64,000 nt of DNA from an uncultured delta proteobacterium. Its GTDB lineage: Bacteria > Desulfobacterota > BSN033 > UBA1163. The translations under genes were made by a program, and so were the position numbers. The notes under the pieces were generated by a model, which did no database searches, was not told the DNA's origin, and worked only from the letters and a program-made list of their open reading frames with translations. Of this stretch, positions 2,001-17,333 are shown in pieces (position 1 is the stretch's first letter; every line of letters starts with the position of its first letter). The DNA lies in contig CAWHBU010000006.1 in NCBI GenBank assembly GCA_963827685.1, positions 352,001-416,000 on the forward strand, given 5' to 3'.

Positions 2001-2071
2001 GAACCGCCCGGTGCGGACCCGCACGCCGGGTGGTGTGGGGAGGGGCGGCTAAAAACCGTCCCTTACCCGAT
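2001..2071 (+). ncRNA. Group IIC(-attC) intron 3' remnant (domains V and VI)
   Basis: DV GAACCGCCCGGTGCGGACCCGCACGCCGGGTGGTGT with CCG triad, DVI ending CCCTTACCCGAT; antisense to the cassettes and joined to TAGCTC, i.e. inserted at GT|TAG of the Mrr cassette R'' site. Confidence 0.85.
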
Positions 2072-7771: not shown

Positions 7772-9349
7772 TCAAGCAACCCATAGGGTATGCAGTGACG
7801 TCCCCGTATCGTCTACCATCAATTTTGGGATGTCTTTTTGAAGGTCCCAGGGAACAAAGAAAGTCAGGTCGTCAATCTCCTCATGGAGGCTTGAATCACA
7901 TACCTTTCGCAGCCATTCTTTGATCTCATTGATCATCATGACCACCATACGGTCAATTCCCACCGCATGATTCATCTCCTTCAAATATGGAGAGGTTCTC
8001 AGTTGATCCAGACCCTCCTCCAAGTGGATTCCTTCTACCTTCCTGCGGAGGATGTAAACATTTCCTCTGTCCTGAAGGATCACAAGGGGTGGGTTGATCT
8101 GAACACTTGCCTGGTGAAAGCGCACCCCAGAAATGGTTTCGGCGATTTTCGGGAGGAACCTCTTCTTCTTTTCGATGGAGGAAAGAAAACGAGGAGAGGT
8201 TCTTTCAAAGATATACTCCACCCCGTCGTGACGAAATTCCTTCAACTTCGTCGGGTCAAACCCCAATTCGAGGAGATCTGAAATGTTCATACGGGGAGAT
8301 CGTACATCTCTTTTTCTCTCCTCCCACCAAGAGAGGTAGGGTCGTCTATACAGAGGAAGACCCTCGATATAAAGGGTGGGGTCTTCTTTCAGTTCCTGGG
8401 GGAGATGACCAATGATCTCTTTCTCTCCCCATATCTCAGCCTTCCCTTCTTTCGCCCACCAGAGGGAATACGGCTGAATGGGCAGGTTCTTGATCGGGTC
8501 TGAGATGGAGATTTGATCGAGGGACTCTCCGCCCGTATAACCGAGAAGGGATGCAATTCGTCTGCGGAATCCAAGCACTTTCGTGACGAATTTAGTAAAC
8601 ATGAAATGCATAAAGGGAGTCGAAGTCCTGGTTGAGATTTCCATTTCGAAAAGATGTTCCAATGCCTCGTAGACAGCACGAAATTCCATAATCGTCCGTT
8701 TGACCATGGCCTCGTTGTCTTGCATATCGATAATGGGTCTTCTTTTCTTCACTTTGAAGAGGAGCTTGATCAGCTTTCCCCTTAGATCAGGAACGTTTAG
8801 GGTGGCTGGGATGAAGACCATGTAGTTCTCGTCACCATTGACACGACGATCACCGATCAGCTCTTCGATACACTTCCAACCGAGTTTGGTGTAAATGTCG
8901 TAGGTTGGATCATCGGGCGGGATGATATTATCAAGAAGACAGATGACCTCTTGACCCTCTGCAAAGGCTCTAAAGGTCTGAAGGATCTTTTGGCCCAGTC
9001 CTCTGTTGCGAAAAGGAAGCATGACCTCCACATAGACTAAGTAGTAACAGGGAATGGGCTTTCTGAGGTAGATCATATTGAGGTATCCCAGAACCTCTCC
9101 TTCTTCTGTATGGATCTCAAAGGTGTGGAAGAGATGATGACGCTCCTGGGGTCTTAAGCGCTCCACCTTCGTCCCATGGACGGTCCTGTCGACTAACTCA
9201 TCAAGCCCTTCAAAAGCGTCATAAGGGAACAAGGAGGCAAACTCCCTGGGATGATCTTCCAGGGTTAGATCGATCACTGCAAGAACGTCCTTCAAGCCTA
9301 TGCGTGCTTTCTTAAACCTTTCCCTGATTTCTACGACCTCTGATTTCAT
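7772..9349 (-). CDS. GNAT-domain protein with long C-terminal extension (525 aa)
   Basis: Acetyl-CoA motif A VEVMLPFRNRGLG and IYTKLGW; starts 13 bp after the pheA stop. Confidence 0.65.
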   Translation of the reverse strand: MKSEVVEIRERFKKARIGLKDVLAVIDLTLEDHPREFASLFPYDAFEGLDELVDRTVHGTKVERLRPQERHHLFHTFEIHTEEGEVLGYLNMIYLRKPIPCYYLVYVEVMLPFRNRGLGQKILQTFRAFAEGQEVICLLDNIIPPDDPTYDIYTKLGWKCIEELIGDRRVNGDENYMVFIPATLNVPDLRGKLIKLLFKVKKRRPIIDMQDNEAMVKRTIMEFRAVYEALEHLFEMEISTRTSTPFMHFMFTKFVTKVLGFRRRIASLLGYTGGESLDQISISDPIKNLPIQPYSLWWAKEGKAEIWGEKEIIGHLPQELKEDPTLYIEGLPLYRRPYLSWWEERKRDVRSPRMNISDLLELGFDPTKLKEFRHDGVEYIFERTSPRFLSSIEKKKRFLPKIAETISGVRFHQASVQINPPLVILQDRGNVYILRRKVEGIHLEEGLDQLRTSPYLKEMNHAVGIDRMVVMMINEIKEWLRKVCDSSLHEEIDDLTFFVPWDLQKDIPKLMVDDTGTSLHTLWVA

Positions 9350-12692: not shown

Positions 12693-13202
12693 TCACAGAC
12701 GTGCCAAGATCAATAGATTTGTCCCTTTATCCACGTCCTGGCCTTCCTTCACCAGGACCTCTTTCACTTTTCCTTGAATCGGAGAGGGGATAGGCATTTC
12801 CATCTTCATGGCCTCGATAATGATGAGTACCTGGTCAATTTCTACTGTCTCTTCTTCCTCAATCAGAATTTTGATCACTTTACAGGCCAAGGGTGAGGCC
12901 AAGACTTCTTTCTCAGGTATACCAACTGCTTCTTTTCCGGGGAGAAGTGCCATCTTATCCGGCCGAAGGATTTCCCCCCGGTAATTCCCTCCTTTTATGA
13001 AGGCCTCGTAGACATCCCCTTCCTCCACGATATCCACTTCATAGGATTTTCCGTCGCAGATCATGGAGAAAAGATTGTCTGAGACCTCCAAGACATCGAC
13101 CAAATGGGTACGATCCATAGAGGAAATTTGATAGAGGTGATCTCCCAATGGCTCCACTTGAACGGAACAAATCCCTTCCTCTGTTTTAATTTTATATTCC
13201 AT
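12693..13202 (-). CDS. Biotin carboxyl carrier protein
   Basis: EAMKME biotinylation motif; start revised to ATG 13202 (MEYKIK). Confidence 0.88.
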   Translation of the reverse strand: MEYKIKTEEGICSVQVEPLGDHLYQISSMDRTHLVDVLEVSDNLFSMICDGKSYEVDIVEEGDVYEAFIKGGNYRGEILRPDKMALLPGKEAVGIPEKEVLASPLACKVIKILIEEEETVEIDQVLIIIEAMKMEMPIPSPIQGKVKEVLVKEGQDVDKGTNLLILARL

Positions 13203-14633
13203 GCTCGGTCTCCTTCTGATCTTTCTCATAGGCCCGGATGGCAGCGGCAATACAGGCCAACTCCTGGAAGGAATCATGGGTCTCCCTTTTCTTTTGGAAA
13301 TACTCCTCCTCGAGAAAGTGGGTATCGAAATCTCCCTGAATGAACCGTTGATTGTTGACAAGCCAGCGGTGAAAGGGAATCGTGGTCTTAATCCCCTTGA
13401 TGACTAATTCCTGGAGAGCTCGATCCATTCGCAAAATGGCCTCTTGGCGATTTCTTCCCCAAACAATGACCTTGGCAATGATGGGGTCGTAGAAGATGGG
13501 AACCGTGTACCCTTCATAGATTCCAAGGTCCACCCGCACTCCGGGCCCCCGGGGATCTGAAGCCTCTCAATTCTACCCGTGGAAGGCAAAAAGTTGTCTT
13601 CGGGATCCTCCGCATAGATTCGGCAAACCAGGGAGGCCCCAATGGGTTCAACATCCTTTTGGGTCAGAGGAAGTTTCTCACCTTCCGCAATACGGATCTG
13701 GGCCTTCACAATGTCCACTCCGGTCACCATTTCCGTCACCGGATGTTCTACCTGGAGTCGGGCGTTGAGTTCCAAGTAGTAAAAATTTTTCTCACGATCC
13801 ACAAGGAATTCCACAGTCCCCGCCCCACTATATTTGATGGCGATGGCAGCAGAGAGGGCCACCCCGGCCATTCGAAGGCGGGTCGTATCATCTAGAAAAG
13901 GAGAAGGACATTCCTCTAAGATCTTTTGGTATCTCCTTTGGATAGAACATTCCCGGTCGAAGAGGTGGATGATGTTGCCGTAATGATCCGCCAAGATCTG
14001 AAACTCGATGTGGCGTGCATTCGGGATATATTTCTCCAGGTAGAGGTCATCGTTTCCGAACGACGCCTTGGCTTCTGCCCTGGCCACATTCATGGCTTGA
14101 AAAAGCTGAGCACCCTGATCCACCCGTCGGATCCCCTTGCCTCCCCCGCCCGCAACCGCTTTGATCAGAACTGGATATCCTAAAGCATTCGCAGCCTCGA
14201 GAGCCTTCTCCTTATTGTCCAGGGGACAGTGGCTTCCCGGGATCACAGTGATTTGTGCTTGGGTCATATTGGATTTAGCCCCCATCTTCCTTCCCATGGT
14301 TTCCAAGGATTCTCCGGAAGGACCGATGAAGGTGATCCCCTCCTTCTGGCACGCTTGGGCGAATTCCCGGTTTTCTGCCAAAAATCCATATCCCGGATGA
14401 ATGGCATCTGCTTTGGCTTCTCTGGCTATATCTAAAATTTTATCTCTTGCGAGGTAAGTCTCATCGGAAGGCCCGGAGCCCAAGCTGTAAGCCTCGTCTG
14501 CATAACGGACATGTAACGCCCCGCGATCCGATTCGGAATAGACGGCCACTACCGAAATCCCCAACTCATGACAGGCACGAAGAATACGAACTGCAATTTC
14601 TCCTCGATTGGCAATGAGTATCTTCTTAAACAC
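13192..14633 (-). pseudogene. accC: Biotin carboxylase subunit with a 1-bp frameshift near 13543 (real lesion or assembly error)
   Basis: ANRGEIA, HPGYGFLAEN, RLQVEHPVTE; expected PGGPGVRVD is split between two frames. Confidence 0.8.
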
Positions 14634-14827: not shown

Positions 14828-15976
14828 TCATATCTTCAAGCTATCCGCTATCTGCGAGGCTACGGGTGGGCATCCCTGAATAAAGGTACCCCGGCTTTTC
14901 ATCTTCGATGTACAGTTTCCTATCAGGATCGTTCCTTTCGGAAAAGCATTCAGGTGTTTCCCAATTCCGATATGAATGTTCTCATCCTCCAAACGATAGT
15001 CCGTAAGCCTTGAACGGTAATCTTGAAGAAAGACCAACAGCGTTGAAAGGCAGGCGCTGCACGATCCCTCATCATGGATGATGAGATCAGGAAAAAGAAT
15101 AGATAGTTTGGAGGGGGAAGGATTGAAAGGAAATTCCCATTTTAAATAATCCTTGGGTTTGATAGAAATCTTTTGAAGTTCGATTTTCCCCAACCCTTTT
15201 TCAGCTGATAGCTTGAGGTGAGGGACTGCCTCTGGGCTTAAGCCCATCAGCCGGGCAGCCACCGCATCGGTTGAAAGGGCATTGTTGCCAACGAGGATCA
15301 TTCCCATCTTCTTCACTTGCCCATAAGCCGGCCCCATCCCTTCCATCCCCACAGTGCCATCAATGATGGCTAAATGGGGGGAGAGGACCGAAGCCATCTC
15401 TGAGATGGCGATATCCAATTCTTTATGACCCCTGGTGATCTTCTTATCACAACGGAGTTGATGGAATCTCGCCTTTTCTCTGCGCCATAATAAACCTTTC
15501 ATATTCTTGATGCTCAGCGTGACCTGGGTGTGCATGTGGGTTTTCATCACCGGGACAGAAATAATGAAATCGAACTCCTTTAGCACAGCAGGGATTTTAA
15601 TCTTCTTAACAACTTTTCCTCCTGGGATCGTTATCTCCATTGGATCCCCCTGATCCAAATCGAGAAGCTCAACCTTTTTCTCTTCAGAGATCCCTTTCAA
15701 CCCCGTCACTTGAAACGCCTCTTTCGCATTCACTCCAAAGATACAACTCTCACCAATGACGATGCGGCGGACTCCTCTCTCTCTCAGGTGGTCGATGGTA
15801 GCAGCGACCACCTGGGGATGGGTCGTCACTCCGTCTCCAGGGGAGGCCAATCGGGCCGCATTGGGTTTGATCAGGACATTCCTTCCCTTCAGATGGGATA
15901 AGGGAACCTTTTGAAGTCCACGTTTTGCCGTGCGATAGGGATTTTCCCCTTTCGAAACGATCACCAGAGGTTCCAT
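14828..15976 (-). CDS. DUF362-domain Fe-S protein
   Basis: VLIKPN, TTHP, PVMKTH, TLSIKNMKG, IIDG..GMEG.GP, plus C-terminal CSAC, GNC and GCPP; start revised to ATG 15976 (GGAG RBS). Confidence 0.85.
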   Translation of the reverse strand: MEPLVIVSKGENPYRTAKRGLQKVPLSHLKGRNVLIKPNAARLASPGDGVTTHPQVVAATIDHLRERGVRRIVIGESCIFGVNAKEAFQVTGLKGISEEKKVELLDLDQGDPMEITIPGGKVVKKIKIPAVLKEFDFIISVPVMKTHMHTQVTLSIKNMKGLLWRREKARFHQLRCDKKITRGHKELDIAISEMASVLSPHLAIIDGTVGMEGMGPAYGQVKKMGMILVGNNALSTDAVAARLMGLSPEAVPHLKLSAEKGLGKIELQKISIKPKDYLKWEFPFNPSPSKLSILFPDLIIHDEGSCSACLSTLLVFLQDYRSRLTDYRLEDENIHIGIGKHLNAFPKGTILIGNCTSKMKSRGTFIQGCPPVASQIADSLKI

Positions 15977-15995
15977 TGACACATTCTCCACAAAC

Positions 15996-16023
15996 AAAAA
16001 AACCATAGAGAAGTCCTCTATGG
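15996..16023 (-). terminator. Second terminator of the DUF362 attenuator
   Basis: CCATAGAG-GACTT-CTCTATGG followed by a T run. Confidence 0.75.
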
Positions 16024-16031
16024 CCCTAAAA

Positions 16032-16070
16032 CAAAAGGGCCATGGATTTTAATCACCCATGGCCCTTTTG
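16032..16070 (-). terminator. First terminator of the DUF362 attenuator
   Basis: CAAAAGGGCCATGG...CCATGGCCCTTTTG followed by TTTT. Confidence 0.8.
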
Positions 16071-16085
16071 ACAATATACTATCAT

Positions 16086-16130
16086 CTAAGCGCACAGGTG
16101 AATGGCTTGACGATAATAATAATCAAACAT
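16086..16130 (-). CDS. Tyr-rich attenuator leader peptide MFDYYYRQAIHLCA (alternative in-frame ATG at 16151)
   Basis: Three consecutive TAT codons; lies between a consensus promoter and two terminators. Confidence 0.7.
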   Translation of the reverse strand: MFDYYYRQAIHLCA

Positions 16131-16168
16131 CCTCTTAGTCCCTACATCCATTTTTTTGCCTTTGTAAT

Positions 16169-16197
16169 TTTATAATTTATTAGAGAATAATTGTCAA
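16169..16197 (-). promoter_or_regulatory. Sigma70-type promoter of the Tyr leader
   Basis: TTGACA-17 bp-TATAAA. Confidence 0.7.
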
Positions 16198-16199
16198 GA

Positions 16200-16352
16200 G
16201 TGAAGCTCTCCGGCCACAGGCCGGGGCTTCCCGGGCACGCAGTGGCGAGCGGAAAGCGAGCAAATGAAATATCGTTTTAATTGTGCCCCTTAACCCCGCC
16301 TACCTGCCTACCGCAGGCAGGCAAGGCGGGGCTTGCGGGGCACTTGCCGGCC
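16200..16352. mobile_element. Non-coding GC-rich hairpin element (IS200/IS605-like MITE) with a nested 19-bp hairpin
   Basis: Two related hairpins, each followed by GGGGCTT..GGGCAC; CCTGCCTACCGCAGGCAGG (16303-16321) interrupts CCCCGCCTA|CAAGGCGGGG. Confidence 0.5.
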
Positions 16353-16475
16353 AAAAACCCTTGCCCGCCCCCAGTTTTTCCTTATCCTTTCCAGGCCGGG
16401 TGGCTTGCTCCTAAAAAACTCAGTACTTCTAAAAAACTGGGAGAGGGCAAGTTAACAGACTTTCATATGTCGAAG

Positions 16476-17333
16476 TTATGGCAGTTCCCGCGGCCTCTGG
16501 CGTTGGCGGTAAGCCTCAATATAGCGTCTTGCACGTCTATCGCGGCCGAGCATCAGATCAGCAGCCAGAATGGCTGGCCGCACCTGCGCTACATCCACAA
16601 TCAGGCAGGTAACCCCTGCGGCAACAGCCATGACGACGAAGGCACTATTGAGCAAGTCACGATCAGGCAAGCCAAAAGAGACATTGCTGGCTCCCAGTGT
16701 CAGGTTTACTCCCAATTCGGCCTTAATCCTTCGAATCGCTTCTATGACGGCTGGTCCGGAGCTGGGATCGGCTCCTACAGCGAAAGTCAGACAATCGATA
16801 ATTATGTCCTCTCGAGCAATACCCACTGTCTCAGCACGCTCGACTAATTTATGGGCAACGGCTACCCTCCGCTCTGAATCCTTTGGAATCCCCTTGTCAT
16901 CTTGCACCAAACCAATGACGGCTGCTCCATATTCTTTGACCAAAGGGAGAACTTTGGCTAAGGAGTGTTCTTCACCCGTCACCGAGTTAATGAGCGGCTT
17001 GCCTTTGTAGACTTTAAGAGCTGCCTCTAATGCCTTAGGATCAGCACTATCAAGGCACAGAGGTATATCTATTGTGTCGATCACTGCCTTCACTGCCAGG
17101 GGAAGGAGGGTCACCTCATCCACACCGAATGTCCCCACGTTGATATCAAGAATGTCCGCCCCGGCTTGTGCTTGAGCGAGGGCTTCTTTACGGACCATCT
17201 CCAGGTCGCCTGCCTTCAAAGCTTCTGCTAGTTTTTTCTTGCCCGCAGGATTGATCCTCTCGCCAATCAGTGCTGTGGGCTGGTCATCACTAATGATGAC
17301 TTCTTTCGTAGGGCTTGACACTCTGGTCTCCAT
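16476..17333 (-). CDS. Pterin-binding methyltransferase (corrinoid:tetrahydrofolate methyltransferase, AcsE/MetH-like)
   Basis: IGERINP.GKK, GADILDIN, PLCLDS, LINSVTGE, GASNVSFGLP. Confidence 0.88.
   Translation of the reverse strand: METRVSSPTKEVIISDDQPTALIGERINPAGKKKLAEALKAGDLEMVRKEALAQAQAGADILDINVGTFGVDEVTLLPLAVKAVIDTIDIPLCLDSADPKALEAALKVYKGKPLINSVTGEEHSLAKVLPLVKEYGAAVIGLVQDDKGIPKDSERRVAVAHKLVERAETVGIAREDIIIDCLTFAVGADPSSGPAVIEAIRRIKAELGVNLTLGASNVSFGLPDRDLLNSAFVVMAVAAGVTCLIVDVAQVRPAILAADLMLGRDRRARRYIEAYRQRQRPRELP

Follow-up and report, generated by a model that had tools for sequence, protein, structure and literature searches.

Enterobacterial amino-acid operons are controlled by transcription attenuation of the trpL and pheL type. 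In these attenuators, a promoter is followed by a short open reading frame (ORF) with successive codons for the amino acid that is sensed, by mutually exclusive 1:2, 2:3 and 3:4 hairpins, and by an intrinsic terminator placed before the first structural gene. The pheL leader also figures in PMC3082878. We describe here an element of the same design that precedes a DUF362 gene in a 64,000-nucleotide (nt) stretch of DNA (the window, to which all coordinates refer) from a Thermodesulfobacteriota (Syntrophaceae-like) genome (G000; 5.23 Mb, 94.5% complete). Judged from its predicted architecture and folds, the element is almost certainly a ribosome-mediated transcription attenuator sensing the supply of tyrosyl-tRNA, and both regulation and synteny lend good support to a link between DUF362 and the supply of aromatic amino acids, with a bias to tyrosine.

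The DUF362 locus, its attenuator and the aro genes discussed below all lie on the minus strand. The element and the gene behind it consist of the following parts:

16169..16197, minus strand: promoter, read directly, with -35 box TTGACA (16197-16192), a 17-nt spacer and -10 box TATAAA (16174-16169)
16086..16151, minus strand: leader ORF MDVGTKRMFDYYYRQAIHLCA, 21 amino acids (aa) and the stop codon TAG, with three consecutive Tyr codons at 16121-16113
16089..16102, minus strand: region 2, the antiterminator 5' strand TTCACCTGTGCGCT, which shares the last codons of the leader and borders on its stop codon
16028..16069, minus strand: terminator 1 (T1), AAAAGGGCCATGGGT / ATCCATGGCCCTTTT and then GTTTT, with a 7-nt loop, -24.6 kcal/mol
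15996..16027, minus strand: terminator 2 (T2), CCATAGAG / CTCTATGG followed by T7
14828..15976, minus strand: DUF362 gene, 382 aa, starting at ATG 15976 behind GGAG

The promoter, Tyr leader, antiterminator segment, two terminators and DUF362 gene that an earlier note on this DNA had recognized are all present. The leader peptide proposed there, MFDYYYRQAIHLCA, is present too, but the start codon conserved among relatives is an ATG farther upstream, at 16151, so that the leader is MDVGTKRMFDYYYRQAIHLCA. This ATG stands 4-7 nt after the Shine-Dalgarno sequence AAGG(TGG), both being conserved in 7/7 same-genus sequences, while the internal Met of the leader is Leu, Pro or Val in three of these seven. 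The promoter is near-consensus and predicted to be a strong one of the sigma-70 type; its TTGACA and ATAAATTATAAA boxes are kept in the 7 same-genus upstream sequences, and a consensus promoter scan did not list it because the scan rule demands a T at the last -10 position. Compared with the enterobacterial attenuators, the element carries a Tyr-only codon run, occurs in a Thermodesulfobacteriota genome, has a doubled terminator with an extra alternative pairing (B:C, see below) and precedes a gene, DUF362, with no assigned function. A search of attenuator titles and abstracts, with subscription journals outside its coverage, returned no Tyr-only leader, and one aimed at attenuation by leader peptides with tyrosine codons gave nothing relevant.

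The 196-nt leader RNA folds with an energy of -66.7 kcal/mol (z = -5.0), and 0/200 shuffled sequences were as stable. T1, whose tail reads TTTTGTTTT, has the position of an intrinsic terminator, behind the leader and ahead of the structural gene, and its 5' arm (16066-16053) is the pairing partner of region 2. T2 was listed on the minus strand by the terminator scan, which also listed the B:C pairing (T1 3' arm with T2 5' arm) as a plus-strand match. At gathering thresholds, an Rfam search of the whole window matched no family to the attenuator, its sole match being a group II intron fragment at 2002-2071, and a permissive scan of 15800-16500 gave chance-level matches only (the best was the trpB motif, with 23.3 bits against a gathering score of 59).

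The alternative pairings were modelled by ribosome-masked constrained folds, whose geometry assumes a standard ribosome footprint. When the transcript ends ahead of the T1 3' arm and a ribosome occupies one of the three Tyr codons, whichever it is, the minimum-energy fold joins region 2 to the T1 5' arm (-19.7 kcal/mol). A ribosome standing at the stop codon masks region 2, and T1 forms (-24.6 kcal/mol). If nothing is translated, the region of the stop codon is paired with the Tyr codons, and T1 forms here too. Thermodynamic folds of the full leader always prefer the terminators, the switch being visible only in co-transcriptional or truncated folds, to which it is likewise confined in classical attenuators. 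The B:C pairing amounts to -15.5 kcal/mol, as against -12.6 kcal/mol for T2 itself; since T2 can lose its 5' arm to the T1 3' arm once the latter is free, one stalled ribosome could disarm both terminators.

These helices recur in an alignment of 11 sequences from related loci, 7 of them from the same genus. Pairing of the T1 helix reaches 96.8%, both partners have changed in 3 of its pairs, and T1 is the only hairpin retained in all 11 sequences. The antiterminator helix is paired in 94.4% of the cells and shows one-sided U-G/C-G and G-U/A-U changes; slid-partner controls were 33-48% paired overall and 35-45% paired for this helix. For the T2 helix, pairing is 82.4% and both partners have changed in 6 pairs; some relatives (G025, G027) have T2 in degenerate form or not at all, which points to T1 as the core element.

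In the mechanism that we propose, RNA polymerase would start at the sigma-70-type promoter and the 21-aa leader, with its three consecutive Tyr codons, would be translated. If Tyr is plentiful, the ribosome would reach the TAG codon and cover region 2, T1 would form, with T2 as a back-up, and transcription would stop. If Tyr-tRNA is scarce, the ribosome would stall on the Tyr codons and leave region 2 free to bind the T1 5' arm; the T1 3' arm could then engage the T2 5' arm, neither terminator would form, and transcription would read through into DUF362 and possibly into the accC and carrier-protein genes that follow. The anatomy, the conservation and the alternative folds were established computationally, and it is from them that we infer the response to tyrosine.

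The alignment also bears on which frame is read. The Tyr-frame ORF is present in 11/11 aligned relatives with 2-4 consecutive Tyr, so that the conserved Tyr-rich upstream ORFs that the earlier note proposed to look for do exist, and the distance from its end to the terminator arm is 17-26 nt in all 11 sequences. Of the other six same-genus sequences, five have TAT TAC TAT TAC in place of TAT TAT TAT (one of the five reads TAT AAC TAT TAC). Tyr is thereby retained, mostly as four residues, and the overlapping frame goes from IIII to IITIT (seen in G005, G004, G012, G009 and G010), ATT becoming ACT in the Ile frame wherever TAT becomes TAC. Translation of the Ile-rich frame, raised at the outset as an objection to a Tyr leader, was rejected because the TAT/TAC changes are synonymous for Tyr but disrupt the Ile frame, which is not conserved. 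The Tyr-only leader is retained in 7/7 genomes of the window's genus, and more distant loci read FGFYYYFWFKAMHPCA, FFFFYYLWYKAMHPCA and CFYYWSN.... At locus L025 (G029), a possible related leader, MKKRGQIIYLSIYYGIGIWSALFLKRY followed by a stop codon, was noticed upstream of the DUF362 ortholog; it is followed by a terminator, GGGTCATGG..CCATGACCC and a T run, that resembles T1.

The attenuator has two paralogs in the same genome:

12395..12639, minus strand: second, paralogous attenuator, between the carrier-protein gene and aroA', with TTGACA at 12639-12634 and a leader ORF at 12588-12493
G000:C6:349380-349760 (locus L098), about 2.3 kb before the window start: third attenuator, which precedes trpD2-trpEGDCFBA

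The second attenuator, which precedes aroA'-aroB'-pheA, has a leader of 31 aa with Phe, Tyr and Trp codons (an F/Y/W leader) and tandem terminators, GGCCGTGGGTAG/CTACCCACGGCC with T5 and AAGCCGTGGGA/TCTCACGGCTT with a T run; an F/Y/W leader is conserved before aroA' in 9/9 loci from several genera. The third has a W-only leader, VEIIFRIKQGNWWWWQNIEGEVCPVPS and a stop codon, with a WWWW run, and tandem terminators GGCCATGGGCGG..CCCATGGCC and GGCTATGG..CCATAGCC, each with T6. The DUF362, aroA' and trp attenuators can be aligned with one another and have a common terminator core, GGCC(A/G)TGGG / CCA(T/C)GGCC, within which a compensatory A-U to G-C change is found. In this genome, then, a W leader is assigned to trp, an F/Y/W leader to the common pathway and pheA, and a Y leader to DUF362. 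Given the W leader for trp and the F/Y/W leader for aroA'-aroB'-pheA, the Tyr-only leader looks like control of the Tyr branch, and this matched set is the strongest single argument for placing DUF362 in that branch. Whatever the role of DUF362, the three paralogous attenuators appear to be new, well-conserved cis-regulatory RNAs.

Synteny points in the same direction as regulation. Downstream of DUF362, the window contains:

12693..14633, minus strand: accC, for biotin carboxylase, with a frameshift near 13545 in this assembly, and the biotin carboxyl carrier protein (BCCP) gene
12370-11570, minus strand: aroA' (ADH synthase)
11573-10581, minus strand: aroB' (DHQ synthase II)
10523-9363, minus strand: pheA (chorismate mutase, prephenate dehydratase and ACT domains)

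The last three were assigned by Pfam and NCBIfam matches above curated cut-offs. They had already been read as lying downstream of DUF362, which is correct, but accC, the BCCP gene and the second attenuator, which intervene, had been missed. The aromatic amino-acid neighbourhood itself, noted at first for the window only, recurs across genera: among 18 ortholog loci compared, 10 have aroA', aroB' or pheA within their flanks. The order DUF362-accC-BCCP-aroA'-aroB'-pheA is that of the window's genus, and DUF362-aroA'-aroB' is found in G019, G025, G027, G030, G032 and L068, the ortholog standing directly upstream of aroA' in at least 6 genera. In G016, a super-operon reads aroA'-aroB'-aroE-aroA-aroK-aroC-pheA-[196 aa]-DUF362-trpEGDCF..A; in G017, pheA-[525 aa]-DUF362 is followed by a transposase interruption and then by trp genes; in G023, a trpD-like gene overlaps the start of DUF362.

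The accC frame (14633-13192) is broken where the conserved PGGPGVRVD region contains a short run of G (13480-13600), and the remainder of the Biotin_carb_C domain continues in an ORF at 13539-13192. Because accC is an intact 480-aa ORF in two relatives, the break could be a long-read assembly error or a real frameshift. No significant structure or terminator was found in the DUF362-accC spacer (z -0.37), which is only 75 nt long in G012, and DUF362 may share a transcript with accC and the BCCP gene.

Both here (7772-9349, minus strand) and in G017, pheA is followed by the gene for a 525-aa protein whose sole domain match, to GNAT, is weak; the same protein precedes DUF362 in G032, and the 196-aa ORF between pheA and DUF362 in G016 is a remnant of it. 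As a candidate TyrA substitute it was dropped because it is GNAT-like and also found in TyrA-positive genomes.

The genome lacks a recognizable TyrA. No match to PF02153 (PDH_N) was found in its 5.23 Mb, which extends to the whole genome an absence noticed earlier within the window, and the same search was positive in 14/14 control genomes. In a sample of 43 genomes of the family (completeness at least 85%; orthologs called at E at most 1e-60), TyrA is present in two (G011 and G026), as against 16 of 24 sampled genomes outside the family. A DUF362 ortholog is present in 25 of the 43, and none of these 25 has TyrA. G011, which belongs to the window's genus, has no DUF362 ortholog and carries a classical cassette of DAHP-synthase, DHQ-synthase, TyrA and prephenate-dehydratase genes (locus L086, G011:C74:1-16000). 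This cassette lies beside an IS200-type transposase and is divergent from the aroA' operon, and it therefore looks like an acquired second route. As the family has full sets of shikimate, Phe and Trp genes and almost never a recognizable TyrA, it would be expected either to use an undescribed Tyr route or to import tyrosine. Our literature search, which did not extend to subscription journals, found nothing on prephenate dehydrogenase in Syntrophus and no relevant paper on a missing tyrA combined with an iron-sulfur route to tyrosine.

The predicted structure of the DUF362 protein suggests what kind of enzyme it may be. The protein matches PF04015 over the full model (positions 1-200 of 200; E 3.7e-51, 174.5 bits against a cut-off of 24). 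This is the only family returned by a Pfam scan, in which Lar_N (PF09861) gave no match, and phmmer and profile searches of PDB sequences gave neither LarA nor any other meaningful match. By contrast with these sequence searches, the top 12 PDB matches of its AlphaFold2 model (mean predicted local distance difference test score, pLDDT, 92.4) all belong to the LarA family of lactate/malate racemases (Z 15.5-19.2), the next, unrelated match having a Z of 5.7. The fold common to the protein and to the racemases (PDB 5huq, 7s91, 9eid and others) covers residues 9-291, with Z 17-19 and a root-mean-square deviation of about 3 Å over about 217 residues. The protein thus comprises a LarA-like domain (about residues 9-291) and a C-terminal four-Cys domain, which presumably carries a [4Fe-4S] cluster; its cysteines (C306, C309, C355 and C369, of the CSAC/GNC/GCPP motifs) are invariant in 42/42 aligned homologs.

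H147, K157 and H172 are likewise invariant in 42/42 DUF362 sequences, ferredoxin-fused paralogs included, and hhalign pairs them, weakly (probability 1.25%, E 0.042), with H175, K185 and H201 of the four LarA homologs of this genome. In LarA numbering, we take the cofactor-tethering Lys and the Ni-ligand His to be Lys184 and His200. According to PMC12611868, the residues aligned to H147, K157 and H172 act in LarA as catalytic His, cofactor-tethering Lys and Ni-ligand His, respectively, and PMC11770544 places DUF362 and the LarA N-domain in one Pfam clan, CL0471. The second catalytic His of LarA (His108) has no counterpart in the DUF362 alignment, as expected for a one-way dehydrogenase and not for a racemase. 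The DUF362 protein further differs from LarA in that it has no counterpart of the D-x-T-R motif and in that the four-Cys domain replaces the LarA C-terminal domain. The genome encodes LarC along with the four LarA homologs and so probably makes the nickel-pincer cofactor. In the papers found on DUF362/PF04015 no function was assigned (subscription journals fell outside the coverage). Among the control genomes, those of Synechococcus elongatus and Haloferax volvanii gave DUF362 and LarC matches and no LarA match, a hint, together with the invariant triad, that DUF362 proteins may be users of this nickel-pincer cofactor; Bacteroides thetaiotaomicron has DUF362 without a LarC match.

Regulation, synteny and the missing TyrA make the role in Tyr supply suggested by the earlier note plausible; the specific enzymatic role is more conjectural. 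In our proposal, which is limited to the aro-linked clade, DUF362 would be a Tyr-branch enzyme of a TyrA-less lineage. A hydride would be taken from the ring carbinol of prephenate (or arogenate), yielding 4-hydroxyphenylpyruvate (or Tyr) and CO2, and the electrons would leave via the Fe-S cluster to ferredoxin and not to NAD(P)+. A single-base hydride-abstracting site with an Fe-S exit wire would suit a one-way dehydrogenase, and the prephenate ring carbinol is a substrate of the kind required. We tentatively infer, for the functional step, that DUF362 is a non-canonical prephenate/arogenate dehydrogenase, which is possible though short of probable. It is doubtful that the broader statement holds as a whole, namely that DUF362 proteins constitute a second nickel-pincer-type hydride-transfer family wired to Fe-S, whose aro-linked clade, as a ferredoxin-coupled prephenate/arogenate dehydrogenase, takes the place of the NAD(P)-dependent TyrA throughout a family of syntrophic Thermodesulfobacteriota under a Tyr-codon attenuator.

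The proposal is that DUF362 may work like TyrA, not that it belongs to the TyrA family. The likeness lies in the proposed reaction only, along with the place between pheA and trpE that DUF362 occupies in the super-operon of one relative and a proposed regulation tied to the pathway end product, tyrosine. Unlike TyrA (PF02153), the DUF362 protein has an unrelated fold, with no NAD(P) Rossmann domain, no PF02153 match and no sequence similarity.

Several observations weigh against this proposal. Neither TyrA nor the ortholog is found in 16 of the 43 family genomes, at least 6 of which do have AroA'; in G031, for instance, aroA'...aroC and prephenate dehydratase are followed directly by trpE, and there is no ortholog elsewhere. 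The anti-correlation between DUF362 and tyrA envisaged by the earlier note is not established: despite the 0/25 count, it is not significant (hypergeometric p ~0.17, calculated by hand), there being only 2 TyrA-positive genomes. Leaders outside the window's genus also carry Phe and Trp codons (e.g. FGFYYYFWF and FFFFYYLWY). Paralogs 59-74% identical stand in another context (G021, G014, G016:C51, G035, L070, L074), in which a peptidase-U32-like gene, a B12-radical-SAM gene and DUF362 are followed by an ABC or TRAP-type uptake system (clusters at L048, L053, L054, L056, L070 and L074). More distantly, all six Spirochaetota genomes with homologs (41-45% identical) have TyrA. The mapping of the His/Lys/His residues depends on the weak hhalign profile alignment given above.

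The tree and the distant homologs set the limits of the proposal. In a quick maximum-likelihood tree, the paralog copies are mostly apart from the aro-linked copies, with a Spirochaetota/Planctomycetota clade further out. Distant homologs (41-59% identity) were found in 10 genomes, 7 of which have a PDH_N match over the cut-off; since the Spirochaetota homologs coexist with TyrA, the wider subfamily did not, it seems, arise as a TyrA substitute. AroA' is absent from all six Spirochaetota genomes with distant homologs, and in G055, G061 and G062 AroA' is present and TyrA absent. The function of the wider subfamily thus appears to depend on neither TyrA nor AroA', which is why the hypothesis is limited to the aro-linked clade.

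Three other readings, all still in contention, accept the attenuator as real. In the first, which we consider unlikely though plausible, DUF362 serves the aromatic pathway generally, in precursor supply or recycling for the AroA'/AroB' route or as a redox partner, and the Tyr-only leader has drifted from an ancestral F/Y/W one. The F, Y and W codons in the leaders of four loci beyond the window's genus (G019, G025, G027 and L068) are consistent with such a drift, and the gene stands immediately upstream of the aroA' attenuator in G019, G025, G027, G030, G032 and L068. Moreover, the aro-linked copies all occur in AroA' genomes, except in the 83%-complete G005, and the distant homologs of G055, G061 and G062 are in AroA'-positive, TyrA-negative genomes. 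However, the copies of G016 and G017 follow pheA and precede trp genes and are not near aroA', and the six Spirochaetota genomes with homologs have no AroA'. The Tyr-only leader, furthermore, is kept with synonymous changes throughout the seven genomes of the genus, while a separate F/Y/W leader, at a distance of 3.5 kb, serves the common pathway.

In the second reading, DUF362 is a salvage enzyme that oxidizes an imported aryl 2-hydroxy acid (4-hydroxyphenyllactate to 4-hydroxyphenylpyruvate), the product then being transaminated to Tyr. This would agree with the LarA-type fold, as LarA enzymes act on 2-hydroxy acids by transient hydride abstraction according to PMC11770544 and PMC12611868, and with the ABC or TRAP-type uptake systems that adjoin paralogs 62-74% identical. 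It is nevertheless quite unlikely: the window copy and its closest relatives lie within biosynthetic aro/phe/trp clusters with no adjacent transporter, and the family would still have no de novo Tyr route.

The third reading has DUF362 handle prephenate or chorismate for a purpose other than amino-acid synthesis, for example in a cofactor or modification pathway with prephenate-dependent U32-type hydroxylases, the Tyr leader serving to balance flux. It draws on the paralog clusters, where U32-like, B12-radical-SAM and DUF362 genes occur together and where, in G021 and L074, an EPSP-synthase-like gene and a small chorismate mutase are found nearby. An EPSP synthase also adjoins a Spirochaetes homolog, and the only NCBIfam match of the U32 protein is the prephenate-dependent TrhP, though weakly so (E 1.6e-4, far below the cut-off). 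We regard this reading as very unlikely, because de-repression upon Tyr starvation is the signature of a supply gene and not of a consumer, and because the window copy is not beside the U32 and radical-SAM genes, which sit on other contigs. In the genome studied here, a radical-SAM gene and a chorismate mutase lie beside aroD-aroE-aroA-aroK-aroC on contig C3.

That the element is not a Tyr attenuator at all, either because the overlapping Ile-rich frame is translated (in G000 alone, LIIIIVKPFTCALR is encoded in the +1 frame, where a TTG start codon follows AAGAGG at 4 nt) or because the hairpins are terminators of the upstream methyltransferase gene, is extremely improbable: five of the other six same-genus sequences preserve Tyr, whereas their Ile run has become IITIT or its frame is not among the open frames listed, promoter and Shine-Dalgarno sequence precede the Tyr-frame ATG in 7/7 same-genus sequences, homologous W and F/Y/W leaders stand before trp and aroA', and the methyltransferase gene ends about 280 nt before the promoter.

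Two further features of the window were noted. Between the methyltransferase gene and the DUF362 promoter, a GC-rich palindromic stretch (16200-16460) includes an inverted repeat (16360-16379 / 16432-16451); comparable palindromes precede the G021 ortholog and separate trpD2 from trpE, and the stretch may be a dispersed repeat element. The Rfam group II intron domain at 2002-2071 (plus strand; 44 bits against a gathering score of 40) adjoins, on the opposite strand, a gene for an Mrr-type restriction endonuclease.

The codons of a leader-peptide attenuator reveal the amino acid to whose supply a gene contributes, and the matched set of W, F/Y/W and Y leaders is an unusually clean functional pointer for DUF362, a family widespread in anaerobes. 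It makes DUF362 a testable candidate for the missing Tyr step in a bacterium without a detectable normal Tyr enzyme. If the proposal that DUF362 is a non-canonical prephenate/arogenate dehydrogenase is true, it would close a gap in the anaerobic biosynthesis of tyrosine and give PF04015 its first function, and nickel-pincer-type chemistry might reach from racemases to net redox enzymes.

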